Below are positions 9,001-64,000 of a DNA stretch of 64,000 bases, piece by piece; within the stretch, counting starts at the first letter, position 1, and each line of letters starts with the position of its first letter. Origin of the DNA: Psammoneis japonica (Eukaryota). The position numbers were made by a program, and so were the translations under genes. The DNA is taken from contig QPGO01000065.1 in the NCBI GenBank assembly GCA_008632985.1, positions 186,001-250,000 of the forward strand, in the 5' to 3' direction. The notes beneath the pieces are model-generated. The model was given only the letters and a program-made list of their open reading frames with translations. It did no database searches and was not told the DNA's origin.

Positions 9001-9562
9001 CGAAGCTGCACCGGGGTCGTTTCAAAATTAAATGCCATGGCTACTGCGACGTACGGTACTAAGATCTATAAGCACTATTCTCTCTACTAGTAGAGCATAC
9101 TGTTCGCGCCTTTTCTCGTTCGAGCATCGCCTTCTACTTTCGGACACGTGATAAAACTTGACAAGCAATTGATGTCACATTTCCAATGACGTGTATGCTG
9201 TATATATTTTTTTTGAAGAGTAAAAGGCTCGGAAACGGCATCCACCACGGCAGCCTAAGGAGCGAGTGAGTAGAAAGCATGCACAATTCACACATTTTAA
9301 GTGCAAGCCACTGTGAACAGAGAGGATCGAGTGAGGTGCAAGACCAAAATTGTCCATCAATCAAAATTCGCAAGCTCCATCAGGCTCCTTCCACAAGAGC
9401 AGCACAGCAACACCCAGGACATTCACCCAATTGACAATGATGCCACTGGAGCATGTCGGACGATGAAGTGTCACCCGAACTTGGTCAGGATGTTTTGGTG
9501 TTGCCCAGACTGGATGCAACTTTGGAGATGCACCTGGCCCTTGCAACTGGGATGGTGATTCA

Positions 9563-10148
9563 TTGCAAGCTTGCCAACAGATTGTGCAGCATGCTTTCCA
9601 CACCCCGAATGTTGTGGAAATCATGTGACCATTCCTGCCAATGCTCAATTTTCCTCCGGCTCCAGTGGCTTTGGTGGTTGCCTCATTTGGCCAAGCTCTC
9701 CCAGATTCTCTCAACCCGGGAGTGCTGCGAGATGGCCTGTGGATGTCCCCTGCATTCAAACTCCACATTGACGACAATGTGTGGGCCCACATTGCACGGT
9801 TCTTGGAGCACACTGTTTTTGCCAGTGCATTTGCCCTCTGCATTCTGCAAGGGTTTGCAAGCTTGCCAACAGATTGTGCAGCATGCTTTCTGCACCCCAA
9901 ACATTGTGGAAATCATGTGACCATTCCTGCCAAAGCTCAATTTTCCTCCGGCTCCAGTGGCTTTGGTGGTTGCCTCATTTGGCCAAGCTCTCCCAGATTC
10001 TCTCAACCCGGGAGTGCTGCAAGATGGCCTGTGGATGTCCCCTGCATTCAAACTCCACATTGACGACAATGTGTGGGCCCACATTGCACGGTTCTTGGAG
10101 CGCACTGTTTTTGCCAGTGCATTTGCCCTCTGCATTCTGCAAGGGTTT
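9563..10148 (+). repeat. Tandem duplication, 292-bp unit, 2 copies
   Basis: ttgcaagcttgccaacagattgtgcagcatgc starts at 9563 and 9855; the copies are near-identical. Confidence 0.9.
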
Positions 10149-10669
10149 CCACGTCCAGAGATTCCCAATGCCTTGAGCCTGGAAAAGCTCAATCTTCACA
10201 TTTCCTTTCTTTGGGAGCTGCTTGGATGCAAATGTGACACAAGAGCACCTGCTGTCAGTGCGGCAGCTCACAAGTTGCATGAGCTTTTGATCGTCCTTTG
10301 AGATTGGCTGGTGTGTCAGCATTGTCTCTTGGGTGACACAATGTCATCTCTGCTGGGCTTGTTGGAGTTCCATGTTTGGCATTGTCCCTGCACCGCTGTT
10401 GGCTCTTCTTGATTTGGGACAATTTTGGGCTGACTTGATTGCCCATCATCACATTGCACAGTGGATTCTTGAGCAGCAAGGCAGGAAGGAACAAATTTTG
10501 GACAACCTTCCTTGCAAGCTCCATCACCATGTTTCTTCTGTTCTCGAACGGGAAAAGGCCCAATTTGTCTGCCATGTGCACCTTGATGGCAAATGAATTG
10601 GCTCACACTCACCTTGCATCTGACAAAAACAAGGCTGCCAAAAGCAACCTTGCATGTGACAAACAAGGC

Positions 10670-11790
10670 TGCCAAAAGCAAGTGCATGTCGCAGGCAGCA
10701 AAGAACAATCAACCTTTCTGTCAATTCCATGTTGGAATCAACAGCGCACATGCAACATTGACCACGGGCAAAGTTTGTGATCAGCATCAACAAAACATGA
10801 CACAACAACTGGGATTCCCATGTTTTTGGCATCTTGGGTGGCATTCCTCCTCAACCTCTCCACAAAAATCAATCCAATCTGTGTTGCACCAAAAACCGAT
10901 TTGTCAATCTTGGGTCTCATTGGATTGCACCCCATCTGTCCAAGATCTTGATGTTTCTTTAAACATCCAAAAACATGATGCAATGCCTCCAAATGACATT
11001 CCCTGGATTCACTTACAATGAAACAAACATGAGACTTCACTGAAAATGTCAATCCTTCCAAGCTCAGTTGCCCGCCAACAAATTCCAGTCAACTGCAAAT
11101 GCCATGTCACTCCATCAGGTCCCAGCTCTGCCATTGCATCCAACTTGGGTTTGCAATCTGAGGCAAAGGGTTCTCAACATGGCTTTGAGTGCTTGGCCAA
11201 TTCCATCTTTGGCTGACAGCCTTCCAACAACTTTGATCACCTTCTTGACAAATGATTTTGAAGAACTTGCCCAAATTGTGCTGCCATCCTGCACCTGGAT
11301 CTTCTCAACGTCAGCACCCAGGCATTGTTCCAGCTCACTTCACTTCCTGGCTTGACCACACACCTCAAATTTGTTTGCTCAACAATCAATTTGCCTTGAT
11401 GAGAGACAATGAGAGTGATGTCATCCACATGGATCAATGACATCTCATGGCTCTCATGACCATCTTCACAAGTTGCCGCTTGGATCCAAACATCTGGGTC
11501 AGCCACAGTTGATTCAAATCCCATGTCACAAATGACAGATGCAAGATGCACGCTCCACAAATGTCCAGCACTCTTCAAAACACACAAAGCGCACACAACA
11601 ATGCAAACTTTGCCCCCAGCTTTGCCACACTCTTTGCCACCTTCAAACCATGTTTTCTCCCATGCACTTCACATTCAAGTGTGCATTCTGCAAATTGACA
11701 CCTGTGGCATCAATGCCGCCAGCAACAAACCAACTCAAGCACCACATCTTGCAACCACACTTGAATGTGCAATGCTGGTTGGTGCTTCTG
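10670..11790 (-). mobile_element. Degenerate Ty1/copia (CoDi-like) retrotransposon pol fragment: reverse transcriptase plus RNase H start
   Basis: ALCVLKSAG, DMGFESTVADPDVW, LIHVDDI (YVDD equivalent, 11420-11431), HLEALHHVFGCLKKH, SCFVDADH. No LTRs were recognised. Confidence 0.85.
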
Positions 11791-11814
11791 CAGCATGCTC
11801 GTCAGCGACAAACC

Positions 11815-12208
11815 TTGACAGATGCAACCATTCCAGCTTGAAGCAGCTCATTTTGTTGCATCAAACTCTTGACATGGCCCTTGTGTCATTTTCTCTCCCA
11901 ATGATCTCTGCGCTCTTCCACTTGTCCTGTGAGCACTCAAAATCATGGCAGGGTTTGCTGAGCTTGATGAAATGTTTTTCAATCCAGGATTTTGGAGTTG
12001 TTGGAACATCCACTTGCAGACTTTGCAAGTGACCCAAAAGCCCCAAAGCTGAGTGCATTTGGATGGTGTTGATTTGGATCACTCAAGCAAAGTTTCAAAA
12101 GTTTTGATTGGAGCTAAATCAAGCAGTGGAGGAGAAGTCGGATCAGCCAATGCACCTTGACAGCACCAATCACAGTCAGCATTGACTGCAATCAAACAAA
12201 CAAAAATG
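11815..12208. repeat. Mutated paralog of 22030-22438
   Basis: Colinear alignment, for example ttgacagatgcaaccattccagcttgaagcagctc versus ttgacagacgcgaccattccagcttgaagcagctc. Confidence 0.85.
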
Positions 12209-15200
12209 TGCGCACATGTGTTGTGCATTGGTTGATGACACAACAGCATGTTGAGTGTTGTCTTGTTGCTGCAGCTTCAAGTTGCAGGTCACAGGCCTCC
12301 ATGACTGACACACCATGGTGCACTGCATCATTTCGCTGTGTCCGCCCATCCTCAGTCCTGGCTGTGGCTGTGGCCAGGACGGGTCAGAAGATGGTCAGAC
12401 ACGTGTGATCTCGAGTCAGAACCAAAGCTGTGTTCTGCCACATGCAGTGGGTCAAAATGACCCATTTGTCACAGAACATGGAATCCACTTGGGTTCTGGT
12501 GTTGAACTTGCTTCTGAGCACTGCCAGCACACAACCCAATGATCACAGCATGTGGAGCCTGCATGTGTTCTGGTGCTGAACTTGCCGTTGGAAACAGCGA
12601 GTGCACAATCTGCATGATCATGGCCGCAACTGCTGCCAGCAGTGTCAACAACAATTGTTGCTTCAATTTGAAGCCTTCGGTGCTGAATTCATGCAAAAAG
12701 AAAAGAACAGAAGGTGGCATTTGTGGCAGCAGTTCAACTCTTCCACCGGGGCTGGCTGGCAATGAACTGACTGTCTCAGCAGAATTTGCAGCAGGTGCTG
12801 CACAAGCTGTGATCAGCAAGTGGGCTGTGATCCAAGAAGGAATCTGGAATCTTGGAGGGGGTGGGGTTTGAAGGCGGAACACAACGTTGATTCAGACTCG
12901 CCAAAAAGGAGACAGGAGACACACCAAACACAAAAAAACCAGAAGACATGACCGAGAGTGGACCTGCAGACAATGGCCAGGGAGAGCAAGCCACGGGGGC
13001 CATGAGGGCATGCAAGAAGAAAAAGAGGACCAAGACAGAGAAAGAACAGTGCAGAAAGACAAATCTTGCAAAGAAAAGGGTGCAGAACAGGGAATGCCAT
13101 GAGTGAAACCGTCGCGGTGCAACTTTCTGGGTGGACAAAAGGACCCAGCCACTTTGAAGTCTGCCCCAAATGATGCAACTCTTTTTGTTTGCTGCGATGC
13201 TCTGAACAACTGGCGCGTGTTGCGCAACAAAGATTGCGCGCGATGATTGGTGACAGACAAGAGAAGTGAAATCACACACGACAACCGGATCGTGGCAAAC
13301 TCCGGACTCGGGCTCGAGAGTGAGTTCCTGGCACTCAAGTGCTTCTTGTTGCCCTGTGTCTTCCCCCGAGGGCAAGAAGAAAAAGTGACATCTGTCTTCT
13401 TCTTGCTGCCCTTGCTCATGTCATGTGCAGCACTGCGCATTTTGGCTGCAAGCTTTCTTCTGAGCTTCCACGCATGGGTCTGTGACATGCTTTTGCTGCT
13501 CAAACTGGAACCAGGATCAATTCCTGTGCTTTTGTCATTGTTTGAAAATGGATCAATCTGTTCACCTTTTTTAGACCCTCTTTCATGGAAGCCGCTGCAT
13601 CACCCGGGCCAACTCTCACATGGCAAGGCACTCTTCCTCTTCATTTGCAGCTCTTCATCCAGTGGGGCACTCTGCAATGACAGGGTTAGAGATGCACGCG
13701 ACAAGACAACAGTCTGCTTGTGTTGTGCGCAGACGCACCTCTGACTTGGCCAGTTTGTCCATTGACTCTTTATTCAGCAGGGCAAAAGTGGCGCCAAAGG
13801 GTCAGAGATGCATGCGATGTGACAACAGACTGCTGACAGTGTGCCCAGACGTGCAGCACCTTTGACTTGGCCAGTTTGTCAATGAACTCTTTGTCAAGCA
13901 GGGCACTCTGCAAACAGGTGTCAGGTGGATTCTGACACTTGTCACAATGCATGTGCTCCCTGCAGAAAAGTCTTGGCGAACGACAACGATTAAAACTTTT
14001 CTTCAAACAGACGGGTCACTTGGCACCATGAGCTGCACCTGCTCCTGAAATGTTCCAAATGTCCTTTTAAATGTCGACACAGCTCATTGCAGTCGGAATC
14101 GTAAACCCCGCATGCATTGCCTTGACTTCAGGAGGGCCACTTAGCCACTTCAACAACATCTTCTGCCACCAGCACAGGTTGGTCAATCATGATCGCAAAA
14201 TCCAGTCCACCACTCACTTCAACAGTCTGCTGAGAATTGGCTCCTTCGTGCCTGAGATTCTGCTCAAAGGTGTTCAGTTTGGCAACCATGCTTCAATTCT
14301 TGCAGAGAATCCAGCAAATGCTGACAGAACTGTTGGAAGAGAACGCGCCTCATTTGGTGTTCTGACAGCATCATTGAGAAGAAACAGCGCTCATCTGTGA
14401 CAGTGTCTTACGTGCCGCAGCGGTGCCTTTGAGCACGCAAGCAACGAGGAGTCTCTCGCTGCCGCAATCCTTGTCAATCAACTTGGCAAAATCCTTGATT
14501 CAATTTTTTTTGTTTGCATGCAATCATGATGCTGGCCAGATGACCCTTGTGAGCAGCAGGTGATTCGAATTCCTGCGATCCAAAGAGCGGTTTTCTTGGA
14601 CCAATCACAAACATTGGGACATTGCAGAAGATTTCAACACATTTCGCCACCCCCTCTGGGATCACAATTGGAGCACAACGCTCCTCAGAAGGCAGCACAA
14701 GCTTGCTCTTTTCTGTCATTCTCCTCCTCATTGCCTGTCATTTGCCATCATGCAACAGCCACAGCTGCCGCCGCTCATTTTCTTGACCTGAAGCTCTTGG
14801 GCAGGCTGAAGTCGTGATGTTTTCTTTCTGTTCATGAGTTGGGAACGCCTCAATCTACGAGCCTGATTTCGCATGCAAGAATGACACCTGGCAGTGCAAG
14901 AACCAAGCAGCGGACACGTGCGAGAATCTTTGTTCCTTGCATTGTGGAGGACAACAGCCAGCTTGCAGGCAGCACCACAGGCTGACGACTGCCGCTCGCG
15001 GTTGAAATCACTGCAGACGATCAACCCGTGCGATGCAGAGTGACGCCTTGACATTTCTGTCATTGCATGGTGGCAATGATGAATGCAAGCAGAAGACTTG
15101 AGTGCCCTTCCAAATGACAATTGACCACTGCCATGTGACAGGAGTTGGTGGTGCCACCATCACCATTCTGCTGGAGAACCGTGGCCCAAATGCATCTGCA

Positions 15201-15654
15201 TGCAAGACAAGTGAACTTTAAGACTGGCTGAAGTCATGTGGTTTTCCAAAGCACAGCAACTGCAAATTCGAGTTCAAGGAGACTTTCCCGACTCACTCTT
15301 CTGCCATCTTTCATTCTTTTGTCTCCCTGCACAATTGATCCATGCTGTGTGGACGTCAAAGTGGGCGCAATGATCCTCTTGAAGTTTGATCATGTCAATC
15401 CTTTGGCGTCATTTGCGATTTGCTCATAGAACGTTTGGGTTTGTTGACTGTTGTCAAAAAGTGCCTGTGAAAGCATGTTCCAGATGATCAACAGCGGCCC
15501 TGCACCTTCTGTGCCTTGTTCATCCGACACGAGGCTGTCCGCCCAGTCAAGCACGTCTTTCTCAGAGTGTCTGACTTTTTAACATCTTGATTGTGTCTTT
15601 TCTTTACGATCACATTGACAGGATGCAAATCAACTTGATTTCGATGATGATGCG

Positions 15655-16500
15655 GTGGGGGTTCTGAAGCCTCGTAGCTCTGATGGGGTTGCCACGACTG
15701 TTTGCACTCACCCTCCTTTCAATGCAAACCAAGCCAAGCTTCTTCGTGACACCAATTCCTCTTCTAATGTGGACAACTTCCAGATCAAGGGAGGAGCAAA
15801 AGAGTTTGAGTTTCGACATGAAAATCTCTTTGTCTGTGTCAAAGACCTCAAGGAGATGCCTTTGTCGAGGAGTTGGTGCATGCGGCACCCGGTCCAAGAC
15901 ATTGGAGACTTCTTGACACTTTGGAAATGTTCTCAGCAGAAGCGTCACACCGCATCAAACAACCTCAATGCAGGGTCAAGTCATTCCATTGTGTCTGTCA
16001 GTTGGAACTTGCTTTGGTGGCAGTCCATCAGGCTGTGTGGCAACTGGCACTGACAATGACTCGGTGGCCTTGGGTGGCGGACAATGCGGGCGAGGAGGTG
16101 GCTTGCATTCAAAGCCGAAAGAGCAGATGAGTCACCACGCAAATTGTTGATCTTGCTGGAAGTGAAAGACAAAAATGACTGACTCAGATGATGAACTTTG
16201 GCAGAAAGAAGCGGCAAGCATCAACTTGTCAATCATGTCTCTCGTGAGATGCCTTCCCTCCATGGGGAGCGAGCATCCGGCCCAAGGTTGTTTGCGAGAC
16301 ATTCTTCGATGCCGTGATTCAAAGTTGACTCACACTTCTCGAATGTGTGTGATTGTCAGCGTCAATCAAGCGTCAACGGACTTTGATGAAACGCAGCATG
16401 CACTTGCTCATGCCACCGATGCCAAGAATGTTCAAATGTCTCGTGAGGCATGTGCACTTGAACAAGAAGCATGCAATCAACAGTCACCTCAAGCTTGAGG
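15655..16500 (+). pseudogene. Degenerate kinesin motor-domain gene
   Basis: TASNNLNAGSSHSI (switch I-like), IVDLAGSER (DLAGSER at 16149-16169), EAASINLS, CRDSKLTH, CVIVSVNQASTDFDETQHALAHA; frameshifted. Confidence 0.85.
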
Positions 16501-16697
16501 CTGCTCCTGGATGTGACAGAATGGCCCTCAAGCGGGATGCTGCCCCAACGGATGAGACGAAACGCCCCAACAGGATTTCCAAAAAGCACACAATCAATGG
16601 TCACCTCAAGCTTGAGGCCACTCATCGACGTGACGGAACGGACCTGAAGTGGGGTGCTGCCCCAACGGATGAGACGAAACGCCCCAACAGGATTGCA
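16482..16697 (+). repeat. Imperfect tandem repeat, period about 120 bp
   Basis: gtcacctcaagcttgagg...tgccccaacggatgagacgaaacgccccaacaggatt occurs twice. Confidence 0.8.
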
Positions 16698-17539
16698 CGA
16701 CTTGCAGAGAGAACCAACCCCCCCCCCTCAAGAAGAAGCCACCACAAAGAAGGACATGTCAAGGAAACACGTGGCAGCGGTGGCGACAGGCAGATCGGAA
16801 AAGAGACCAAAACAGACAAGGCCTGCCATTGATGGCATCAAGAAACACAAGGCAGAACCACAGGGGAGCTGCTGACGTCACTGAGAGCAACGTGGGCAGC
16901 GTTTTACTCTTGGCTGGACTCAAACGCAAGTCTGCCAGCGAATCATCTGACAAGGACTTCAAGAGAGCTTGGAGGACATGCCTGTGGTTGCCAAAGCAGA
17001 AGCTGAAGGCCTGCAGTTGGAGAACGAGGTGGCTGCACATCAAACGACTCCTCGCATCCCAACGGAGTGTCGCCCAAATGCATTCTCGGCATTGACACAC
17101 ACACCACTCCCGGTTCCAGGGATGGTCGACTCCTGAGCTGAAAAGCCCAAACAAAAAGCTGCAGCAAAGTGCAAGAGTCAAACGAGGGAGCTTCTTCTGG
17201 AGGTGGACTTCCTTGCTGCCATCAGCACGGCTCCCATGCCGGACACACGACGCACTTGACATTTTGCTTTGACGCAGAGCTCCGAGGAGTCGCACTTGCG
17301 TTCACGCAGTTCCTCGGACTGCACCAGCTGCAGGTTTTCAAACATCCCTCTTGAGGTTCTCTTTTCAAGAATGCTTCATGTGAGCACCATCCAAGGAGTG
17401 TGGCTTCTTTTTCTTTTGCATGCTCAGAATTCAATTCACAGGAAAAATCCTTGTCGGACTCGTCGCTGCATTCCGTGCCCAATGCAGTGAAAAAAGCCTC
17501 GTGGGACACGTCTTTGTTCAACACAAAGGTCCAACCATC

Positions 17540-17990
17540 CGGACAAAAAGGACAAGCCCAGTGTTGGGTTGCTTTCCTGCTCGCAGATTTCAATTCTAAA
17601 TGACTGCCCCACAGGAAGACCCGGTGCAGGCAGAGCCTTTTCCTGCTCGTCAAATTCGCAGCAAAGCTAAATAAAGACAGACAGTCACAGCGAGTCGCGA
17701 CATCATCGCAGGCATGAAACCCCGTTGAGGCACCTCGCCATGTTGTTCTCAATGCATGGGATCGGAATGACACATCATCGTCAATCAACTCTCGTCGACA
17801 GAGTGCGCACCTTAGAAAACGAGCTTCGAATCACTGCTGTCCGAGCTGCTCATGTTGCTCAAACATGTGAGACACCATCGACAGTTCTCTGAACAAAGAT
17901 GAAAGCTCTGAAGCTGCTGCTCGACTTGAGTCGTACCGTAAAGCTTCGGCCGTCGTGAATTCGAAGGTTCATCATCTTGCTCTTCTTTCA
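17540..17990. repeat. Partly mutated paralog of about 20530-20790
   Basis: Shared ccacaggaagaccc, cccgttgagg and aagcttcggccgtcgtgaa segments. Confidence 0.75.
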
Positions 17991-24088: not shown

Positions 24089-24299
24089 AATACTCCTAGC
24101 TGGTGACTCAGTAACAACACTACTCGAAGCAGCAGACGAATAATTATTGTAAATCTGACATTAGGATTATGTCACTAGACTTGTACTCTAGGTTTCGCGC
24201 AAGTGAGACGACTTTCCAATACAGAAATCTGCAAAGAGAATGTGGAGAACACCTTCAACGTCGACAGCACCTCTCCTCATTTTTGATTTTCCATAACAT

Positions 24300-25516
24300 C
24301 AAAGCTGTCGTTGATGTTGAATCGTCCAAAAGGCTCACAAAAAAGTTGAAGCTGTCTCAAGCTGGCCCTTGAATTCTGTCTGCAAGGCCTGTTGCAAGTG
24401 AGGCAGCAGACAGGAGAAAAGTGCAGGCATTTTCAAAGAGTGTCTGTGGCCACTTGGCTTCTCTGATCGCTTTTTGGCTTCCACTGCCATTTTGAAACAA
24501 AAGGAGTTGTGGGGAGAAAAGGGACAACAGTTGGTTTTTTTAGACAAAATCCCAGCTTGCTCCACAATTGCATGGCAATGGCACAAACAGGAGCCAGTCT
24601 CCTTGGTGCTTTCCACTCAGTGAGCAGCTGACACACTGCTTTGTTGTGGGTGTCATTGGAGCCATTCTTCTGAGGGGCACTGAACCAACAGGCTGACTTT
24701 TGGTGGCAAGCTTGAGGTCCTTTTAAAGCTCTTTTTCATGCACATGTTGCATGACCAAAGCGCACCTGGCAGGAGCTGAGACCAGAGAAGAAAAACTGCT
24801 TCTGTGTCTGTGGGGCCAGTGTGCCCCATTGAAGACAAGCTGCAAGCTGCACAAGACACACAATTGTGGACATTTGATGTTTCATGGTCATGCTGCTTGG
24901 GACTCCCTGTTTCTCTGGCAGGTCTTTTTGGTGGTGCAGAAGTCACATTTTTGCCTCAGCATGAATCCAGTGTTTTGAGCCTTAAAAGTGCAGAGCAAAA
25001 CAAGCAAAAGTTCAACAAGTTTGACAGCCAGTGGCTCTCACACAGAGATGAGGATCAAGCTCACAGCACCAGCATGCAACATTGTGGTGGGACATTGTGG
25101 GAGGACAAGTGTGGGCTGCCTCAGCAATGGGGACAACAAGCACAGCTGGACAAAGGCAGCCCCCCCCCCCCACCCACCCACACATGTTCCTTGGGGATGC
25201 AAGATCACCAAAAATCTTGAGAAGGAGCCCTCATGAGCTCAACTTGTTCAAGCCACTGTTCAAAAAACTCTGGAGCAACAAAGTTGTGCAGAAGCAGTGC
25301 CAGGGCCCCAGAAAAGTGTCTGGAATTTCATTGTTTTTTGACATCCCTGGTGCTGATTCTGTGATGAATTTCCACTCAGTGACATTCTAGACTTTTTTGG
25401 CATTTCTGCTGAGGCCCTGGCACTGCTTCCATGCAAGTTTGTCATTCCAGAGTTCTTTGTCAGCTGGCAAACTTGCTTCATTGGCACTTGGCAACAAACA
25501 AGCCAACTCTGTTTCT

Positions 25517-25558
<42 letters not shown>

Positions 25559-26630
25559 CCTCCCTCTCCCTCTCATCTGTGGAGTTGTCTTCAACAAACA
25601 ACCCAGCCAACATTGTCTTGAGCATCTTGCACCCAGGCTTGCTTGGAGAACAATCTCCAAAGCCTGCTTTGAGTCCAGCTTCTCTTTTTGAGCTGGTGGC
25701 TGCACCAAGCCTTGAATTTTGCTGGCCAAAAAGATGTGCTGCTGCTGGGTTGATTGGTTTGGTGTGTGCAAGCCCTGGCTGCGCCCGTTGTTCAAAGCTG
25801 GCTGCAAGAGCACTCTGTGAGCAGCAGCATGCCCACACAAAAAGGTGCGGGCAACAAAGCTTCAGAGATTGCAACAGCATCTCAAGCACTGCCAGCTGCA
25901 ATTTTTGTGCTGTCACCCACCTCTCCTTGCTTGTGTCCTCTCCACATTGTGTGAGCTGATGCTGCTGCCTGGCAGTTTGCTGGGGCTGTGCTCACCACTG
26001 AAGCCTCTTCTGACTTTGTTGTTGACACATGAAAGTGCACAACAAGGGCAGCAACATTTCAAGAGCTTGTTGTGGCAAATTGCTGGTGGGTTCAGAGAGA
26101 ATGTCACACCACGACTTGCTGCCACAAAGCCATTGTTGCTCAAGAATGTGCGCCATCATTGCCCCTGCTGGGTTGAAAAATGAGCAAGTTTTCAGCCACG
26201 TGGGGGTGCTGCCAGTTTGAGAACAAAAACACATGGCACTGCTCTTGTTTTCCTGTGGGCAGCAGCCTCTGGCAAAAGTTGCTTGGGCCGGCACCACGCC
26301 GACATTTTTGACACCAGGGATGCTCACCTCTCTCAAGGGATGTGGGTGGCCAGACCAAGCTCTTGCTTCAAACTGATCTGATGTGCCTGAACCCACAGCA
26401 TGCAGCCCAATGCAGTGTTTGCACAAGTGCAAACACAGCACAAGCAAGTTTTGCAAAGCTTGTTTTTCTCTTCTTGGAGGTCTGAGCTTCTTTTTCAAGC
26501 AAGTCCGCCGCGCGCGGGACCGACGGTCGCCGCCTGGCTGTCGCCTTCAGTGCAGAGTGCGGCCTCATCGCTGTGGCTGTGCGCTGTGCTGTGTGCTGTC
26601 GGCTGTCGCGGTGTCCGCCATGACGCTCTT
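24300..26630. other. TpA/CpG-depleted hypermutated block 2
   Basis: Only a handful of TA, mostly TTA/TAA; CpG nearly absent until about 26290. Confidence 0.9.
25519..25574 (+). repeat. (CT)n microsatellite
   Basis: Directly visible ctctctct run. Confidence 0.95.
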
Positions 26631-26850
26631 CCTTATCATCTTCAATGTACTAAGCGGCATCTGCTGTTCACTGATCTACTGTTAAAGGGGGGTACAGAGC
26701 TAAGCTGTTGTTGCGCTGCTAGTAATTCGCTTCTTGCCAATGAGACTCTCCTTTGTGCCAACATTGACTGCAGCAACTGGTTCCACAAGGCTGATATCGA
26801 GTACTACGACGAGACACCGCATTGGTAGAATTATTCATGCTCACACCATC

Positions 26851-27835
26851 ATGTCAGCAATCCAGCCATCCCCATCACCCCGGTTGATTGACGTGGACTG
26901 CAACTTGTGGCATGAAGATCTCATTTCTTTTCAGTCAGAACCGCATGGCGACGAAAAATCCGCTTTTGATATTTTACAACAAGACGCTGTAAAAGAATCC
27001 AACATTGTGGCCATGCTCTCGCCGTCTTCCACTCTAGCCGAGGCCCAAGTCGGCTTGGAAACACTCTCCCGAACAAACGCCATGATTCCCATAAAGACAA
27101 CGGTCGGTGTACATCCATATCATGTGGACGAAGAGGGACTGCCTACGAATGAAAAGTTGGAAAGTATAAGGAGATTGCTACAAGAAAACAAGGAGACCGT
27201 GGCAGCTGTGGGTGAATGTGGTCTGGATACAAGCGAAGGCTTTCCACCGCTCGAGAATCAACTACCTTGGTTTCGAGCCCAAGTTGAGTTAGCATCTGAA
27301 TTGAATCTCCCGCTATTTGTTCATGAAAGGCTTGCATTTGATGAAACAATAGAGTGCTTGGCTTCTGTACAGGTTCCAGTATTAATCCATTGTTTTACTG
27401 GAACTCGAGAGGAATGTCGTGAGTACGTCAAGCGGGGGTACTTTATCAATTTCTGGATTTATTTGCAGAGAGACCAATGATAATTGCGCCGAGGTACAGG
27501 CTTGCCTGGCAGAGGGGCTGATACCGCTGGACAGACTCATGGTTGAAACAGACGCACCGTATATGGGCTTTGACGGCTGTCACGATGCGTACATGGAAAA
27601 GAATGCAGAGTATGTTGCCAGTCTCAATGGTAAGAAACGAAAACGATTAGCCAAGAGCACCTATCCAAATCTACCCAGCTCATTGCCACAAGTTGTGGAC
27701 AAAATTATGGAATGCTTAAACAAGAATAGACTGGATTGTGGAGAGGAGCTGTTGAACCGAAACCAGGTGTCGGAACAAATGACTCGAAACGCGATCGCTT
27801 TCTTTGGTTTTGAGGAATGTAACTCACTAGAGTAA
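26851..27835 (+). CDS. tatD: TatD-family deoxyribonuclease; one frameshift near 27445
   Basis: LIDVDCNL, TVGVHPY, AVGECGLD, LPLFVHER, LIHCFTG, ISG, DRLMVETDAPY motifs. Confidence 0.9.
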
Positions 27836-30900: not shown

Positions 30901-32845
30901 GAATTTTTGACTTTCAACAAGTCAAAGGAAGTCAAAGAGAGCCAACATGTCAGTCTTGTTCTCAGTGAAGAGGGTCAGGGATGTCACACCCACATGCTTG
31001 CAAAATGGCAACTTGATCAACTCACTCAGATAAAGGGCCCAACAAGGCTTGGTCTTTGCAAAGAGAAAGGCATTGCTGAGGGACACAGAATTTGCTCAGC
31101 CAACACAACGTGTGCAAATCGTCCTCATGTGCTGCAACCAGCACCAGGAAATCTTTCTTTCAACAGTGCACTGCTTTCATTTTTCAAAAGACAATTGCTT
31201 CTTCTCTGGCAACAAAGAGAAAAAAGGCCAGATTCATTGACACTGGGAAGAACAAGGAGATGAGTGCGCAGTCAGGACCGTGGGGCAGCCTTTTCACATA
31301 TCCAGCACACTCCACCTGCCTCACACCAGTTTTTTCTCACAAAAGCATGTTGTTTCAGAACAGATTGCTCAAAGGCAACTCAGTCACACAGCAAAGTGCT
31401 GCACACACAAAGAAAAATTAAAGTCACAGCATCACACATGTCTTTGCATCCTGTGCACTTGTCTTCTACACAGACAAGCTGTGCTGGCACACTGGGATCC
31501 ACAGGAAGAGGAGGCACATTGGCCACAACAACCCAAGTGGATTCTCTCACCCGCTGAAGGCTCTTCCATTCTTCAGCAGCAATGTGCAGACCACAGAGTC
31601 AGACCACAGCAAGCAACCCAGAGAATTTGAGCCAATCACCATCTGCAAATGAAAGAAAGATGGGGCTGGCAAGAAACAATGCTTTTCATGGTGGAGTCCC
31701 CCACAGCACCACCACAAAGAGTGGCAGCACCAAGAACTCTTGTTCACAAGATTTGCACAGTCAATTTTGCTTGCTGCTGTCTTGCCTTTCTTTCCTCCTT
31801 TTGTGCAGCTGCAGGTCAGGTTGCTGCACTTGGTGACCAAGCAGACATTGTTCTGCACATGTGCTTTCTTTTCTGCCAGATTCAAAGTGGGTCAGTGGGC
31901 TTCCTGCTTTGTGAACAAGGGTTGTCATTGACAGCAATGAACAGCACCGCTGGCTGCAGGTGGGCTGCCCACAGGTCCAAAGTGACAGGTGCTCTTGCAT
32001 TGTTGGCTTGATGATCAACTTGCACCAGCAAACAGCCAGCATTGCACATGTGTCTTTGCTCTTGTGACAGAGCATTGTGCGCGGCATTGTCGGAGAGTGA
32101 ACACAAACCATCTGAAATTGCACTCTTTGGGAATCAGCCAATGTCACAACTTTCAATGCATTTGATCCTCTGGTTTGAGGAGTGAGTGGGATTGCTTCAT
32201 CAGTGCCCATGTTGGAGTTGCTTTTGCAGCTGCCAATTGGCTCACAAGGGCTTGTGATCCGCGCCAAGCTTTTGCACAAATGTGCCCATGAAATCTTCCG
32301 ACAAGTTCAGTGCAGTTGTCAGTCCAATTGTCAGCCACCCCCTGGTTTGAGTGTGTCAACTTTTAAGAGACATTGCGTGCTTTTTCAAAAGAACAGCGGG
32401 ACTCCATGATGTCTTCTGCCCTGGAACGCGCCCTTGAAAGCATCTGAGCCGGAGCAAAACTGGGAATGCTCAACTTGCTCAATCAGTTGTGCCAGCACAT
32501 CCATCCAGTTTGAAGTGGCCTGGTCAGGTTCTGTGCTTGAATTGCCACTGCTGTCATCCATTGCCAGCAAAGGCAAAAGATCTCCATTGATTTGATCTTG
32601 GACCAAAGTCATTTTGACAAATTGTCAGGCAGAAGGAGTGCTGTGCAAACATGGCACCCCAGTTGCCTGGCATGGAAGAAGGAACTTCCCGTGTGGAAAA
32701 GCAACCCTTGCTTCACAATGAGTGTGCACACCTCAAGAATCCGTTGTGCTTCCTGCTCCTCTTCTGTGATGGCATCCCGACCATCACTTCCAACGGCACC
32801 TGCAGAACAGATCGCTTGCGAGAAAAAAGCCAATTTGCGTTTCGC
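27950..32845. other. TpA/CpG-depleted hypermutated block 3
   Basis: TA and CG both very rare over 4.9 kb; abrupt return to normal composition at about 32845. Confidence 0.9.
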
Positions 32846-33224
32846 TAGTACAAAACTTTCGTAGATTTCTACGTCGCTCGCTGGATGGTCCGTCATCAGC
32901 ATCACATTCATCCACCGCGTCAACATTGTCATCTGCCGTAGCAATGCTTCGTGTCTTGAGTTCCATCTGTTTGACAATCGTACTGTGTTTGAACCACATC
33001 TGCGTTTCATCTGGTGTAAAGCTATTGATATAGCTGTTGTTAGCGGAAAAGCAAGAACTACACGAGCATAAGAACGTCACTGCAACTTTCACAACGAAGT
33101 TACAAGCAAAAAGGACATCGTCGACAACACCCTCCTTATGTGGATCCTTTTTATCCTCCAAACGTTCACTCATCGCCTTTACATGGACTAGTACTACGGT
33201 ATTGTCATTGGTATCATTCATCAT
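32385..33224 (-). pseudogene. Hypothetical gene whose 5' part has normal composition and whose 3' part runs into block 3
   Basis: Minus-strand ORFs 32784..33224, 32609..33010 and 32385..32612 overlap successively and cross the boundary. Confidence 0.4.
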
Positions 33225-44452: not shown

Positions 44453-44619
44453 TCAAGGCAGTAGAGTCTTCAATGTATGATGCGATTTATATTTTTATTT
44501 GATTTCGAAGATGTCAGGTAATGAAAATGTCATTTGCAGTCTTCAGGACTATATAAATTTGAATGCATGATGCACTGACACCTCAAAAGGATGGGCCGGT
44601 CCTACAGCATGCCGTACGA

Positions 44620-47100
44620 GAGAAAGCAAAAGCAAACATCCATCGCTTGCCCAAACCGCAACACCCAGAGCATTTGTTTCAAGCAAGCACTCGTGGTTGC
44701 ACCATGCTCTCTCTGTGGCAACTTGTCACCGCAGGAGAGCAGCACAAAACAACCTGCAACTCAATGGACACAGCTTGCCACCCCTGCATCATTGCAGCGG
44801 CCAACCTCATTGAATCCTGCCACAAGCATGTGCCCAGACAAGACTCATCATTGCTTCATTGTTCCACCAGTCAAGGAAAAGAGACTGCCCACAGACTTCC
44901 AGAAACACCACTCTTCATGGTCCTGTGCCAGCGATGCTCTTGCTTGGTGTGGCTGAGAACCATGTTTGTGCAACTTGCCACACATTCCATCACATTGCCG
45001 CACACAGCAACCTCTTGTTGCATGTTTTAAAATGAAAAAGTTCAGGGCCAGGGCCAACAATGAGTTGTTTGTGAGTGCCTTCATCAGCTCTCCCAGCCAA
45101 CAAAGTGCCTCTCTCTGGCAGTTGAGTGTGTGAGAGAGCACATCTCTTGCAGCTTCATAAAAACAAGAGTGGAGAGAGTTGTCAGTTGTGGATTTTGTGG
45201 TGGTAGATCAAGTTTCCCATTCTTCTGGGTCTTGTGAACACAATGATGCTGACACAATGACTGACATGAGCAAGAGGGTGAAATCATCGCAATGCTTTGC
45301 AGGATGAGAAGTGCTGTGTGGCGCAGCTTTTTTTGCCACATGTCCTTTTTGCTGCACTGCTTTGCTCTAAAATTGCCTCTGCTCTTGTGACTGACAATGT
45401 GTTGCCCACAAGCTTGGTTGCAGCAGATGAGGCAGCAAAAAAGTGAGGCAAAGCTGCGCCTCTTTGCTTGTCAAGCATGTTGAGAAACTGCCTTGCTGCT
45501 GACAGAGTGGGTGCTTTGTGCTCAACTGCATGAAGATGCAGCAGCTTCAAGATCATCCACCAAAAGTTGTTGAAAAGCAGGTGCAGAAAGTGTTGGAGAA
45601 CTTGCAAAAAAGACCTGTGTGGGGCTTTGGCAGGCTCAAGTTGGAGCAGAGCTGTGCCACAGATGTTGCAGGGCAGATGACACACTCAAGAAGGCACAAG
45701 AGAAGCTTCAAGGTGTTTTGACAAATTCAAAGTCAAGGTGGCAGAGACTTTTGCAAGCTCTAAAAATTCCAAGGCAAGTGGAAGGCCAAACATTTGTTCA
45801 AACAAAAACAAAACAAAACATTGGCGTCACATGGGCAGCACTCATCTGGCTGTGATTTTGTGCACCATGTTGTGCAAAACCCAGTGCCCATCCATTGCAC
45901 ATTGACCTGTAAAAATTTTGCACCTCTGTGCACACACCCAACACCAAAAAACACTCCACACCATGGTGCGTGAATCTCAGAAGCCTGTCATTTAATGACC
46001 ACAATGACTCAAGATGGGCAATGCTTCACAGTTCTTGCATCAAACACTTTGGTTGTTCACTGGCTTTCTCTTTTCTTCATCAACATGATCATTTGATCCA
46101 AGTGCAATGTGTGAATGCCAGCTGCACTGTGAATGCATTTCACAATTGGTTGTTCAAGAAAACCCGGTTTTTGTGTTGAATGTTTTGCAGGAGCATGCAG
46201 TGGTCTGGGAAAACACAACAAACTGACATGCCCAAAGTGCAGCACCCTTTGCACCAAGTGTCAGCGCCCCTCTCTTGAGCGCACTCTCCACAAGATGGAA
46301 AAGGAAGAATGCAAAGAAAGGGTCTCTGATCATGAAATGGAGCAACCCAGCAGAAAGAAAAACTTTGTTCAACACTTTGAAACCATGCTCAAGAAGCTGC
46401 CAGTTTGATTGGTTTTTCCTTGGTTGGATGGAAAGTCAGTGGGAAGCTGGGTCCATGAACTGTCATCACTCCAAAAGACAATGTTCCTTCTGAAATGGGA
46501 GATGACCATCAAAAGGGTTTTTTTCAAGTTGGTGAAACATCTTCACTCAATTGGGGTCTGTGACAACTTGAGCAAGACTTGGTGATGTGACCCAACTGCT
46601 CCTTTGCAGATCTTGCAAAGTCAGACAAGAACAGCTTTCTGTGTGAGAATCATGTGTTCCATCTCTCTTGTGGCAAAACAAGAAATGAAATTGAGGAAAG
46701 CAGGAGGGGTGAAAAGTTGGACATTGGGCTGTTTGTTCAAAAAGGTGTTTGTTGCTGTCAATGTCACAAGGAGTGCAGGATGCTTGAATGCCAGCAGCAG
46801 CATTTTGCAGGCTCGCCAATTGGCCAACACTTGGATCTCATCTTTTTTCTCTGCTTTCTCGATTCAACCGCTCTCCACTTGGCAGCTTTGCACCAAGACC
46901 AAGCAGGCATCATGGATGAGCTTCTAAAATTCAATCCTGAGGTGGTTGACGTGCTGGGGGAAGAGGGCATCACTCCTCTTTGATTGCTGCCATCGAGTGG
47001 GACAATGTGGAGGGGGCACGAATTCTCTTGCATTGACGAGCGTGGCGCAACGGCGGCCCTTTGCTGCGCAGCGTGTGCAGGCAATGAAGCAATGATTCTT
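44620..47100. other. TpA/CpG-depleted hypermutated block 4, with possible RING-like and ankyrin-like remnants
   Basis: TA is rare; CVECF..LTCPKC at about 46170-46240; TALHLAA and GATALCCAACAGN ankyrin-like segments at about 46865-47090. Confidence 0.85.
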
Positions 47101-47150
47101 CTACTTCTAGAATGGCATGCTAAGGAGCAAATTCAAAAGCACAATGTCTA

Positions 47151-49292: not shown

Positions 49293-51238
49293 ATGGCCAA
49301 GTAAAAGCGCCGCTATCCCCAAAAGAAGCAGGGCGATGAGAGACATGTTGTAAAATAAGAGCAGGAGATTGAGAGTCTGGAACAGCGGATTGCGGCCGAA
49401 GCTCCTGATCGAGGGTATACTCCTCCGCTTTTTTGTCGGAAGCAACGTTGCGTGGATTGGATGGAGCTAACTTCGTCACCCTGACTGAAATACAAAACGC
49501 TTGTATTCCTCATGCGCTGTGTGGAAGAGACATTTTGGGCGCAGCACGAACGGGCTCGGGAAAAACTCTTGCGTTTCTGGTGCCGGTTATTGAAAAGCTG
49601 TTTCGCTCGAGATACACTCCATCCGACGGGCCCGGTGCTCTTGTTCTAAGCCCGACTCGCGAGCTTGCGGTACAGATCTTTCAAGTATTGAAAAAGATGG
49701 GACAGCATCAAGCATTGTCGGCTGGACTAGTAGTGGTCGGCAAAAAATATCGTGTCGAACAACAGCATGTTGGATCCACCAATATACTCGTGGCTACACC
49801 GGGACGTTTGTTGCAGCACTTGGAACAGACACCAAATCTTGACGTTTCGAGCATGCAAATACTAGTAATCGAATACTTGACATGGGCTTTCGGAATCAAA
49901 TGCTACAAATTTTGGAATATCTACCGAGCGAACGGCAAACTTCGTTGTTTTCTGCAACGCAGACGAAACGAGCTTCTGATTTGGCGGCGTTGTCTTTGAA
50001 AAAAACCGAATACCTTGGTGTACACGATAAGGAGTCAACATCTACTACATCCAATCTGATTCAGTCTGTCGTTGTGGTCCCCCTTGAGCATAAGCTCAAC
50101 ATGGTGTATTCCTTTCACATCTCAAGTCAAAATCGATTATATTCTTGGCGTCGTGTTAGCAAGTACGCTTTGCGTGGCAGCTCTTTTGTGCGCTTCAACG
50201 CGGTATTCCCGTCATGGCATTGCATGGCACGCTGGTACAAACCAAACGAACCTCTATTTATTTTGACTTTGTCCATCGACCCAACGCCGTCTTGTTTGCG
50301 ACAGACGTCGTAGCGCGCGGGTTGGACTTTGCAAGTGTCGATTGGGTCGTTCAAGTGGATACGCCCGAAGACCAAGACATGTATATTCATCGTGTTGGAC
50401 GAACCGCATGGTCCAATCGTGGTGGAAAGTCGTTATTGTGTGGCAAACTCGTCCACGGCCAAGTCATCCAACTTGAAGATGTCCTTGTTTGGCATTAGAT
50501 GAATCGATCGTAGATTGGACTAAAACGCTTTTTTGGCGAGCGACTGTAGCTTAGGATTGGACGCGACAAGTGAGGTTGGGTTCATGGCCAACTTTTTCAA
50601 CGGCACGCGAGACTTACTCAGCAATTCCAACATCCCGGCTTCTTCCTGTGGCGTGACATCTGGGACTGCCCTTTACTCCCAACCTTCGGTTTCTACAAAA
50701 AATCAAGGATCGAACGCAGGTACGCAAATCCAAAAATGTCAAACGAGGAGGAGAAAGAAGAGGACGACTTGTTGGTTGTAAAGCAACAGTACGAGTGGAG
50801 CCAGGAGGATGTAGACGCAACCGAGGGTGACATTCATGAAGTTACCAAATCTCGAAAGGCAAAGAGAATCAAGGTCGATATGGAGGTTCAGATTTTAAGA
50901 ATAAACGAATCGTCTTTGGTACCGGACTCGTTGGCGGATGCAAATCAATCCTATGTCGACAAGTGCGTCGGCGGTTGGAGGATAATATGAAGCAGGATCG
51001 TCAACAGGAAAAGGAGCGAGTACGGGAAATGCGCAAGCAGAAACGAATCAAAGCAAAGGGCGCATTGGATGAGCAGCAGCAGGATACTGGCATGATGCTG
51101 ACTCTTTGCGGACACAGTGACGACGAGGGGTCTTCTAGTAGTAGTAGCAGCAGCGACGAGGAGAGCGATTCATCATCAAGTAGCGATGACCAGCATGCTC
51201 GTGGCAGCATAGACGTCAAGGCGCAAGGAGACTTGTAG
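49293..51238 (+). pseudogene. DDX10: DEAD-box RNA helicase DDX10/DBP4 pseudogene
   Basis: TEIQ, GRDILGAARTGSGKTLAF, SPTRELAVQIF, ATPGRLLQHL, LFSATQT, ATDVVARGLDF, YIHRVGRT. The LDEA codons of the DEAD motif are missing at about 49867; further deletions and an early stop. Confidence 0.85.
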
Positions 51239-60776: not shown

Positions 60777-60989
60777 GGTCGTGACACGCATTTTGCTCCG
60801 GAGAGATCGGCGAGAACGCAAAAGCCATCATGTGGTTTGGGTTGCAGGTCGGTTGTGGGCGAGAGCACGCGTCTTGCTTTCGTCCGTCGGCGCAGCAGTT
60901 TTGTTCAGTACAAGCCTGCGTGATTCTACATGATTTTGAAATTTCAATGTAGACATTTAGTGCTGTAGAATCTTCTTTCTAAATATAAA

Positions 60990-63900
60990 CAACGAGCACG
61001 AATGAGGCAATTCTCGCAATGACAGATTCTGGATTCATGTGATGACTGCCTGCCGATTTCCTTTGTGGTCCTAGCAGTCTGAGCGGCAAAAGGAATGCTG
61101 TCAAGAACAACTTCCACTCCATTTGACATGGTGGCCTTGGCAGGCCACACGCTGGATGAAGCACTGCAGCAGCACCGCACCCAACCTTGAGCTAAAACGA
61201 TTGGGACACTGCTGCAACAAGTTTGTCAAAACACGCCTGTGATGATCAAAAAGCTCTCTTGCACCGGCACATTCAAACTGTGCTTCCTGATGCATTGCAG
61301 CAAAGCAGAAGAATTCTTGTTTCAAGAAAGCAACATTGTGGGAAAACTGGAACAGTGCTGTTGGATCAAAGTGCGTTTTTGACATGAACAACAGGTGCGG
61401 CAGGAGCGAGGCAAGCACACAGGAGGATGGAATTCACATGTTTTGCGCTGCTCCAATCCAAAATGTTGCATGTTTGCAAGAACACAGGCATGGACAAGGA
61501 GTGGTGCAAAATGTCAAGAATTGCATGCACTCATTTTGTTGTGGGTTTTCACTCGAGCGAACGAGGGGCCTGAATTTGTTGCAGATTTCTGCTCGAGTGA
61601 ACGAGTGGCCTGCAGTTGGACAAGAGCAGAGATTTTTGATGTTTTGGCAGAGAGCATGCAACAACCATGTGAGCACACACATGGACAAGGAATGTCATGG
61701 CATGAAATGTCAACCACTGCACACAGCAGGGGGCAAAGATGACTCATTGTCCCTCTCCTGCTGCTGTGAGAATGAACACTGCTGGAGCACTGAAGAAGGA
61801 TGTTGCCAAGACGATTTAACTTGAGACAAAATGAAAAGCTGGTGCACACTGCCCCATCCAGCAGGTGCACATTGAATTCTGCCAGAAAACATCCAACTCC
61901 ACCAAGAGATTTGTTTGGCTTCTTCACCTTGAAGACCCAACTTGCATTTTTCTTGGTGACTCACATCTCTGCCACCCGATGAGCCAATGTGCCCTCATCT
62001 TGAACAGCGCCTTTGTCATTCACTTTTATGACAAGAGTCAACTCAGGCTGCTCATTGACTCCATCTGTGACAGCCTTGCCATTGCAGCCCTTGAACTGAA
62101 CATTTTGCAGAAGCTTTGGGGATGTGCTGTCTGCTGCCTCTTTTGTTTTGTGAGGTGGACCACAAGTGTGGAACCAGAGCCAGTGTCATGGGGAGGAATG
62201 GATCCTTGAGCTTGCTGACCACCTTGAGCTCATGGGTGGAATCCAAGGGACAGGCATCACAAGCATCTCCAATGCCATCCCCATCACTGTCACCTGATTG
62301 GCATTGGGAAACAAGGGGCAGTTGTCAAAGTCATCGGGCATGCCGTCACGTCAACAGCATCAGGATCCTGCTGCAGCAACTCCAGCACAAAGAGCTTGGG
62401 ACCTCCTTCTGTTCCATCATGTGCAGCAAAACATGGGAGCTTTCCATCCATTGGTGCAAAAGCTCAATGGATGCAAATTTTTGAGACCAGGATTGACTTC
62501 CTTTGCCATTTCAGTCTTGCACCCAATTCTGCTGACCGTGCATTCTGTCATCAGCACTGAAGCAGAGCCTTCCACCTCCTGTGGGTGTCAAGGACCATGG
62601 ATCCAAATGCAGTTGCTGCCAGGATTGGTGTCCTTTGCAACAATGGCTGTGTTGCTTGATGGACAGTGGGTCCAAAGCTCAGTTCCATGCTTTCTGTCTG
62701 CAGCACTGAAAAACAGCTTTCCAGCCATTGGTGTCAACTCCAATGGATGTGAGTGCTTGTGACCATGACAAAAATCCTTTGCAATGTTTGTTGTGTTGCT
62801 CAATGGATCTTGCATCCAAGGCTTGCTGCCATGCTCAAAGCCTGCAGTGCAGAAAACAGCTTTCCATCCAGGAGTGTCAGGTTGCACAGACAAGAAGAGT
62901 GCTGGCAATGGGGATGAATGTCATGCACCACGTTTGTCATTTGATGCAAAGGGGGTTGTGCTTCCAAAGCTCCCTCCCATGCATGAAATTAAATGCAGAA
63001 AGAAACAGCTTTCCATCCGCAGGTGTCAAATGTTTGGGTTCTAAAGACACGACACTGGGAGAGACATCTTTTGCCATTTCAATTGCTCCCCTCATTGGAC
63101 CATGCATCCAAAGCTCTCTCCCATGTGTTTCATCATTGTTGGTGAAGTGCAGCTTTCCACCCATTGGTGTCAACAGCAACAGAAAACACTTCCCACACAG
63201 CAGGGAAGGCTGCTTGTTGTGGCTTTGGTTGGACGGCGAATTGGAAACTGGGTCATGCTGCTTCCGTCCTTGGTTTCTTCCACAATGTGCAACAAAGTGC
63301 AGCTTTCCTCCATCCACAGGTGTCAAATGCTGTTGAGACAAAGACGTGCAAGAACAGGGATTGACACACACTGCGCAAACAGAGCTCCTCCCCATGCACT
63401 CCATTGTTTGTGAGAGGAAGTGCAGCTTTCCGTCCATGGGCTTCAAGCTGTGCAGGTCCGCAAACTCCTTTGGCCAGGATGGGTGTCACATGCCAACTGC
63501 ACTGTTTGACTCAAGGGGCCATGCACCCAAAGCTCAGCTCCAATCACACCACCATCAGCTCTGACTTGCAGCTTTCCATCCATTGATTTCATTCCATCCG
63601 TTGGCACAACCTCGCTGATTTCCACAATCTTGCAGGGTGAGTGATGACCTTGCACCAGTTGGCAACTGCCTTGATTTTGTGCTGGCTTGATGGTGGTCAT
63701 CAAGAGTTTCTGAATTGGTCATTGCCTCAACATGGCCAAGGAAAATGAAAAGCAGACATGAAAAGACTCAACTCTGCATCAAGTTGATGGTTGAGGGTGT
63801 TGCATGACAAGGCTTGAGGAGAAGGTTTTGTGATGTCACTTTTTTGTTTGCACGTGCCACTGCTTTGTGGCAATGCATGTGCGTCTGCCTCTGGCAGAGC

Positions 63901-64000
63901 AGAGAGAGCAGAGAGAAGAAACAACAGAAAGGTCACCTGTGAAAGTGTTGGCTGGAAGTTTGTGATCCCTCATGACAATGCCTTGCAGCATGCACAATGT
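60990..64000. other. TpA/CpG-depleted hypermutated block 5 (runs off the window end)
   Basis: The few TA seen after 61100 lie in TTA/TAA contexts. Confidence 0.9.
62280..63936 (-). pseudogene. Degenerate ELWxxDGT-like repeat (beta-propeller-type) protein gene
   Basis: Repeated LTP.DGKL(H/F)F.A...HG.ELW.H.P units in ORFs 62588..62908, 62937..63446 and 63443..63703; hydrophobic segment at about 63900. Confidence 0.7.

Follow-up and report, generated by a model that had tools for sequence, protein, structure and literature searches.

Sharply bounded TpA-free domains in a diatom genome suggest TpA-specific hypermutation superimposed on CpG decay

The window analysed here is a stretch of 64,000 base pairs (bp) of the diatom Psammoneis japonica (positions 186,001 to 250,000 of contig QPGO01000065.1, assembly GCA_008632985.1), in which genes for a leucine-rich repeat (LRR) protein, a kinase, a TatD-family protein, an MCM protein and a DDX10 helicase lie between five blocks of unusual dinucleotide composition. 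The blocks are poor in both TpA (TA) and CpG (CG) and occupy 21,250 of the 64,000 bp, about a third of the window. Measured against counts predicted from the composition of the DNA flanking the blocks, the TA-erased domain B1 (9298..17810) contains 23 TA where 357 are expected and 229 CG where 491 are expected. The domains erased of both TA and CpG are B2 (24294..26634; 5 TA against 98 and 31 CG against 135 expected), B3 (about 27950..32846; 13 against 205 and 47 against 283) and B4 (44615..47102; 9 against 104 and 29 against 144), while B5 (about 60990..64000; 6 TA against 126 and 40 CG against 174) is TA-erased and CpG-poor and runs off the end of the window; none of the five is assigned to a strand. 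Pooled over all blocks, TpA numbers 56 against about 890 expected and CpG 376 against about 1,227, and the TA depletion taken block by block has Poisson P values of 2e-33 to 2e-119. An earlier examination of the letters alone, referred to here as the sequence-only reading, had placed the same five blocks within about 10 bp of these coordinates, and its description of them as depleted in TA and CG is confirmed.

The window was profiled in sliding 500-bp steps for the observed/expected (o/e) ratios of TA, CG and TG/CA. TA o/e is 0.00-0.12 in block interiors and rises to about 0.2 in windows at the edges, against mostly 0.4-0.9 (range 0.29-1.03) outside, with pooled values of 0.04 in blocks and 0.61 outside. 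CG o/e is 0.00-0.68 within blocks and mostly 0.8-1.4 outside (pooled, 0.30 and 1.03), and TG/CA o/e is 1.5-2.1 within blocks and 1.0-1.4 outside. The longest run without any TA extends over 1,662 bp. The deficit in TA and CG, 0.0793 (7.93%) of dinucleotides, is almost completely offset by an excess in TG and CA of 0.0733 (7.33%), and the minor shifts elsewhere, with AT and GA lower and GC and CT higher in blocks, are those expected from the bases beside converted TA and CG sites. Mononucleotide composition is unaltered, with a G+C content of 0.489 in blocks and 0.474 outside, in line with the roughly neutral GC content first described for the blocks, and the frequency of AA is not lowered (0.0822 in blocks, 0.0814 outside). 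TG and CA occur at frequencies of 0.1068 and 0.1115 in blocks and are about equal in each of them, and their order along the blocks gives runs-test z values of -0.13 to +1.73, without strand runs. The near equality of the two products and the absence of run structure indicate that either strand is struck, site by site.

The direction of change can be read from copies of block sequence that lie outside the blocks. In the first such pair, the block copy at 11815..12208 (plus strand) has a partner at 22030-22438 with 74.6% identity, and the 12 TA sites of the partner read CA (6), TG (4) or otherwise (2) in the block copy, with none kept, while its 19 CG sites read CA (8), TG (7) or otherwise (2), with two kept; TG and CA sites of the partner are retained at 21/28 and 22/25. 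The second block copy, at the right edge of B1 (17535..17745, plus strand; partner 20526-20728), keeps one of 10 partner TA sites, seven having turned into CA and two into other dinucleotides, and retains 8/12 CG sites. Over both pairs TA is kept at 1/22 sites and turned into CA or TG at 17/22, and in a control pair of which neither copy lies in a block TA is kept at 4/7 and CG at 18/21. The two partner copies themselves have ordinary TA and CG content. In a paralogous contig covering 14185-14515, 11 of the 28 listed differences carry CG (7) or TA (4) opposite a TG or CA of the window, and the reverse change accounts for none of the 28. The change of TpA and CpG into TG/CA that the sequence-only reading had inferred is what the in-window paralogs and this one contig display. 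Flips between TG and CA occur at 5/53 sites in the first pair and at 0/56 in the control, which fits continuing cycles in which TA or CG sites arise anew by ordinary mutation and are rapidly converted once more. Strand-coordinated clusters of change were also considered and find no support in the runs test, although the second pair has seven changes of TA to CA and none of TA to TG.

On account of the mass balance, the paralog comparisons and the strand symmetry of TG and CA, the data support a directional conversion of TpA to TpG/CpA and of CpG to TpG/CpA that is GC-neutral and confined to sharp domains. The ratio of TG plus CA to TA frequency is 83 in blocks and 3.5 outside, and the equivalent ratio for CG is 12 and 2.5. 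If the blocks are near equilibrium, this implies that TpA is lost roughly two orders of magnitude (at least ~80x) faster than it is created, a rate derived from composition and not from counted mutations.

The two losses differ in extent. The TA edges of the blocks are 0-250 bp wide, as sharp as or sharper than the 100-300 bp originally estimated, and at several of them TAs are spaced 10-40 bp apart right up to the last base and end abruptly there; the TA-free zones stop about 100 bp from the neighbouring coding sequences. Terminal inverted repeats, long terminal repeats (LTRs) and target-site duplications were all not found at the block edges inspected. Within the first 150 bp of block sequence, TA o/e is at most 0.24 at nine of nine edges, whereas CG o/e depends on the neighbouring gene, being 0.56-1.12 where the edge was assigned to a gene 5′ side (six edges) and 0.17-0.27 where it was assigned to a gene 3′ end (three edges). 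Four of the nine orientations are supported by gene family (the kinase 3′ end, the TatD 5′ and 3′ ends and the MCM 5′ end), and the other five are taken from the direction of open reading frames (ORFs) only, with the right-hand neighbour of B4 uncertain. The last ~130 bp of B2, adjoining the start of the TatD gene, is TA-free yet CpG-rich, with 18 CG in the last 150 bp. A similar divergence is seen within B1, the left part of which is CpG-poor (CG o/e 0.12-0.31), while its right part, from about 13000, is only moderately depleted of CpG (0.4-0.9), the profile of the right half giving a CG o/e of 0.4-0.68 with a TA o/e of 0.00-0.12. TpA loss is thus more complete and further-reaching than CpG loss, and the boundaries of the two differ. 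As TA is erased at gene 5′ sides where CpG is retained, the TpA process does not require the CpG process, and the losses are separable, being two processes with different determinants rather than the single convergent one initially envisaged. The retention of CpG at gene 5′ sides fits CpG methylation that avoids promoters.

The TAs that survive in block interiors number 47, of which 14 lie in TTAA. Relative to flanking DNA, the survival index is 0.66 for TTAA, 0.09 for TTAB and VTAA, and 0.017 for VTAB, the pattern that independent per-strand hits would give if a T before TA protects that strand. This serves as a lead only, and biased creation of new TAs (TCA to TTA) could mimic it. In the polarised pairs the C-T-A context won 7/7 contests, on sites too few to decide, and bulk trinucleotide accounting is unstable, with negative estimates for the A and T contexts.

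The TA-free sequence is also present in sequencing reads. Three sequencing runs carry the sequence of the window, all of them from one sample and one study. One of these (run X1) holds 0.55 of the words sampled from a stretch that is 72% block, of which non-block DNA could supply 0.28. Its contigs, with a word depth of about 55-65, cover 30/30 bins of 14000-33999, blocks included, and show 0 differences from non-block DNA over pieces of 0.6-1.5 kb; one contig of 1,444 bp spans the left edge of B2 (23050-24395). Among the best-supported differences, four inside blocks are at full depth, and at the listed variant places other contigs, with a depth of about 70-106, agree with the window. One of the four is at 31031 in B3, where a residual TA of the window is CA in the run. 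As read-derived contigs carry the TA-free sequence and bridge a block edge, an assembly or base-calling artefact is unlikely. Outside the blocks, about 720 bp to the right of B3, the run has a full-depth G at 33568 in place of the A of a window TA, a change of TA to TG; together with 31031, TpA-type changes make up two of the seven listed full-depth differences, numbers too small to interpret. The bin 28007-28673 has a summed contig depth of ~2,150 in run X1, against 60-400 elsewhere, and marks a high-copy repeat family within B3. Contigs of another run (X2) that are related to B3 extend into sequence of ordinary CG and TA content.

The blocks are non-coding, dead nuclear DNA, including pseudogenes, that fills the space between intact genes. 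B1 contains the tail of a dead kinesin motor domain (16166..16495, plus strand), matching Pfam PF00225 with E 1.1e-7 and 31.6 bits against a cut-off of 29.3, and KIF20A in PDB with E 3.6e-5. B5 contains a dead, frameshifted ELWxxDGT-repeat gene (62300..64000, minus strand), visible as periodic repeats of ~144-149 bp and matching TIGR04534 in two frames with E 2.4e-14 and 2.8e-13, both scores lying under the curated whole-protein cut-off of 65 bits. The kinesin tail is the one real Pfam match among the 125 block ORFs of at least 80 amino acids (1/125). B1 and 30401-32846 of B3 were scanned against Pfam as ORFs of this length only; six-frame read-through scans, with X at stops, of B2, B4, B5 and 27950-30400 of B3 recovered no Pfam family. 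Reverse transcriptase, transposase and integrase were not found in the block domain scans, nor were any viral domains recognised in them, and the longest ORFs of B3 and B2 have no relative among viral contigs. Of the dead transposon and gene copies attributed to the blocks by the sequence-only reading, the gene copies are accordingly borne out by the kinesin and ELWxxDGT remnants, and the transposon copies find no counterpart among these domains.

ORF length is a poor guide to coding content in such sequence. DNA without TA cannot encode tyrosine, and as TGA is the sole stop codon in TA-free DNA, chance ORFs of 200-330 codons are expected. The lengths observed are those that chance predicts in four blocks (P 0.2-0.87), with P = 0.017 in B3, where a 333-codon ORF (29375-30373) has 0 matches among 1.84 billion representative proteins; in view of the lack of relatives, it is read as a chance ORF. 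Two young tandem duplications lie in TA-free DNA, one in B1 (9563-10146; 292-bp units, 97% identity) and one in B3 (30388-30801; ~215-bp units, 95-98% identity). Being young copies within TA-free sequence, they arose after or during TA erasure. The single N of the window, at 30585, sits between the tandem copies in B3.

The DNA between the blocks carries intact genes of ordinary composition. A TatD-family gene (26704..27832, plus strand; Pfam PF01026, E 9.8e-30 and 1.5e-10) lies between B2 and B3 at ~100 bp from each and has ordinary TA and CG content. To the right of B3, exons of an MCM gene encoding the OB domain and the P-loop (33585..34681, plus strand; PF17207, E 3.6e-14; PF00493, E 1.3e-26) are likewise of ordinary composition. 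Exons of a DDX10-like DEAD-box helicase (49409..50495, plus strand; PF00270 and PF00271) place the host among the diatoms. Every one of the best named matches of this helicase comes from a diatom (Attheya, 72%; Fragilaria and Thalassiosira, 70%; Phaeodactylum and Fistulifera, 67%), its best unnamed match has 74% identity, and no Bigelowiella protein is present among the 120 matches listed, supporting the attribution to a diatom. Non-block DNA contains duplications of its own. A tandem array of three 297-bp units, of which two are identical, occupies 52705-53592 within a 790-codon ORF (52080-54455, minus strand) that has no Pfam family and looks like a repeat-protein gene, and a perfect tandem duplication with a 133-bp unit lies at 41383-41648. 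Dispersed duplicates are found at 1669-2092 and 4073-4484 (87% identity) and at 38229-38434 and 47143-47358 (85%), the last copy being just beyond the right edge of B4.

The pattern is genuine and conspicuous, and a process of this kind had already been described, months earlier, in another lineage. Hypermutation of chromosomal DNA at TpA alone was reported for the first time in 2026, for a single chlorarachniophyte, Bigelowiella natans (Mettrop et al., bioRxiv 10.64898/2026.01.13.699255, version of April 2026), which supersedes the earlier statement that no description of the process was known. In mutation-accumulation lines of this alga, 231 of 302 nuclear point mutations fell in two integrated viral regions, and 230 of the 231 were A to G or T to C, all of these on TpA; the hypermutation occurred in some lines only, at about 6e-7 per site per generation, the background being 3.5e-10 (10.64898/2026.01.13.699255). 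The same preprint describes 124 clusters of TpA-depleted, CpA + TpG-enriched 1-kb windows in the B. natans genome; its authors propose an ADAT2-like enzyme and favour adenine deamination as a hypothesis, and they cite ADAT2 of amphioxus and Trypanosoma as active in DNA on A as well as on C and note the preference of ADAR for a U on the 5′ side of the edited A. CpG goes unmentioned in the main text, which also describes no sequence context beyond TpA.

By the thresholds of that preprint for TpA depletion and CpA + TpG enrichment, 20 of the 64 one-kilobase windows analysed here carry the signature. As a negative control, it is found in 0 of 1,148 windows from 43 metagenome loci around DDX10-like relatives, loci whose best identity is 53% and which by this low identity are judged mostly distant or bacterial. 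The features shared with B. natans are A:T to G:C transitions on TpA, with both TpG and CpA as products, on either strand, the restriction to particular regions and the same long-term depletion and enrichment over 1-kb windows. The two cases differ in that the host there is a chlorarachniophyte (Rhizaria) and here a diatom (Stramenopila), that TA o/e is 0.04 here against a rho of 0.45 in the B. natans giant-virus (NCLDV) region, and that the recognisable targets are dead cellular-type genes here and viral or transposon ORFs there. Furthermore, CpG loss is co-located with TpA loss here, if separable from it, and the rate was counted there, whereas here it is known from composition alone. A literature search outside subscription journals turned up no account of TpA depletion or hypermutation in a diatom.

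Other known systems resemble parts of the pattern. Fungal repeat-induced point mutation (RIP) turns CpA into TpA, thereby creating TA and lowering GC content, and mutates both copies of a duplication; it is premeiotic and requires an enzyme of the RID/DNMT4 type. It is similar in that it saturates non-functional DNA with transitions within restricted domains and spares the genes nearby, and different in that here TA is destroyed, CA is enriched and G+C is unchanged, as captured by the description of the process as the reverse of RIP in the sequence-only reading, and in that the partners of the block copies, lying outside the blocks, have escaped mutation. ADAR and APOBEC3 act on RNA or single-stranded cDNA and mark one strand. 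Hypermutation by these enzymes shares the inactivation of parasitic nucleic acids by deamination, but here both strands are marked equally and without clustering, and it is chromosomal DNA that must undergo the mutation. The near equality of TG and CA in every block and the lack of run structure argue against RNA editing of the ADAR type, fixed by retro-copying, as a source of the blocks. The decay of CpG by deamination of 5-methylcytosine (5mC) matches the conversion of CpG to TpG/CpA in silent DNA and the sparing of CpGs beside gene 5′ ends, but accounts for the CpG half only and cannot remove TpA. With regard to methylation in diatoms, loss of DNMT5a in P. tricornutum removes methylation and leads to higher expression of young transposable elements, and 31 of 60 diatom species have a RID-related DNMT4 of unknown function (Hoguin et al. 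2023, PMC9998398).

Taken together, the data make it probable that two processes are superimposed in silent diatom DNA, a TpA-specific A:T to G:C hypermutation and a decay of CpG by 5mC deamination. The first would turn TA into TG or CA on either strand, would have run almost to completion, and would be of the same kind as that measured in B. natans. The second would convert CpG to TpG/CpA in methylated silent DNA, methylation of the blocks being presumed from their composition. The TpA loss is most likely adenine deamination in DNA by an enzyme with a 5′-T preference. The natural substrate of ADAT2 and TadA is A34 of tRNA, which always follows U33, and enzymes of this type are therefore obvious candidates for a DNA-acting adenine deaminase that would prefer 5′-TA. 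Targeting looks chromatin- or transcription-based rather than homology-based, because the partner copies beyond the blocks have been spared and the TA-free zones end ~100 bp from coding sequences. It may follow a non-transcribed or silent chromatin state. The two losses overlap, TpA loss coming to within about 100 bp of coding sequences and CpG loss ending before gene 5′ ends. The label of a defence system given to the blocks in the sequence-only reading is likewise interpretive, the recognisable targets being dead cellular-type genes and not transposons or viruses.

Among the other explanations, two are improbable to a similar degree. In the first, a single ADAT2-like deaminase of dual specificity would act on A at TpA and on C at CpG, with CpG loss then proceeding without methylation. 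Both losses are indeed found in five of five blocks and converge on TG/CA, and the amphioxus and Trypanosoma enzymes offer a precedent for such dual action (10.64898/2026.01.13.699255); however, the right half of B1, the second paralog pair and the gene 5′ edges keep CpG where TA is gone, and the mutations reported for the B. natans viral regions have no CpG component. In the second, the change would begin at the thymine of TpA, oxidised in a TET/JBP-type reaction to 5-hydroxymethyl- or 5-formyluracil, which mispairs with G and gives T to C, appearing as TA to CA on one strand and as TA to TG on the other. Strand-symmetric data cannot separate A to G from T to C, 5-formyluracil is mutagenic towards A:T to G:C, and a TpA-preferring hydroxylation of thymine is known in dinoflagellates. 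Nothing in the window speaks for this chemistry, however, and it runs counter to the preference for adenine deamination expressed by the B. natans authors.

Further down in probability, the composition could be older than the integration of the blocks, which would then be foreign DNA that avoids TA and CG, or retro-copies of RNA hyper-edited in an ADAR-like manner. The base-sharp TA edges at several borders are as expected for discrete insertions, and the origin of the blocks is largely unrecognisable. This explanation is nevertheless very unlikely, as RNA editing would mark one strand, as the edges lack the repeats and duplications of inserted elements, and as the blocks hold broken eukaryotic genes. 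Same-genome paralogs carry TA and CG at exactly the converted sites, CpG is retained according to which way the adjacent host gene is oriented, and DNA that cannot encode tyrosine is not the native state of a functional genome. Slightly less probable still is error-prone repair by Pol eta, drawn in methylated domains to the T:G mismatches left by 5mC deamination, one of the candidates put forward at the outset. The co-localisation of TA and CpG loss would follow from it, and A to G changes made by Pol eta at WA motifs are known from vertebrate somatic hypermutation. It fits poorly because AA, also a WA motif, is not depleted, and moreover TA is erased where CpG is retained and the B. natans spectrum consists exclusively of TpA transitions (10.64898/2026.01.13.699255). 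Weakest is an artefact of assembly, base-calling or library preparation, for which the common sample of the runs and the N in B3 might be invoked, but the word share in run X1 exceeds what non-block DNA alone could supply, its contigs cover the blocks and match non-block DNA exactly, with four listed full-depth differences in blocks and a block edge bridged, and no error mode is known to us that gives base-sharp domains, the observed mass balance and a CpG retention that depends on gene orientation.

Several points weigh against the combination of TpA-specific hypermutation and CpG decay favoured here. The ancestral states come from two in-window paralog pairs, with 22 TA sites, and one paralogous contig, and the starting composition of the blocks is assumed to have been similar to that of the flanking DNA. 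The assembly may itself have been built from the sequencing runs, which share one sample and one study and are thus not an independent confirmation. The precedent in B. natans is a preprint, and unlike the targets in that species, the blocks contain no recognised viral or transposon domain.

The occurrence of this type of process in a diatom, the near-total erasure of TA, its separability from CpG decay and the presence of pseudogenes among the targets are what the window adds to the B. natans case. The phenomenon is thereby widened to a second major lineage, ecologically dominant and with species amenable to genetics, and the process can run near completion, with one third of the window affected. 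A broader view is possible, though doubtful at present, in which diatoms have an active deamination of adenine in DNA, independent of cytosine methylation, that would erase TpA from essentially all non-transcribed DNA to within ~100 bp of gene ends, perhaps with a preference that hits 5′-VTA and spares TTAA, and that would be homologous to the Bigelowiella system as part of an ancient mutational genome defence across the SAR group (stramenopiles, alveolates and Rhizaria). For genome annotation, TA-free DNA, having no TAA or TAG stops, yields long spurious ORFs and may mislead gene prediction. The mechanism itself becomes testable in these organisms, by comparing the signature across diatoms with their repertoires of deaminases, DNMT4 and TET/JBP proteins, and by looking for inosine at TpA.

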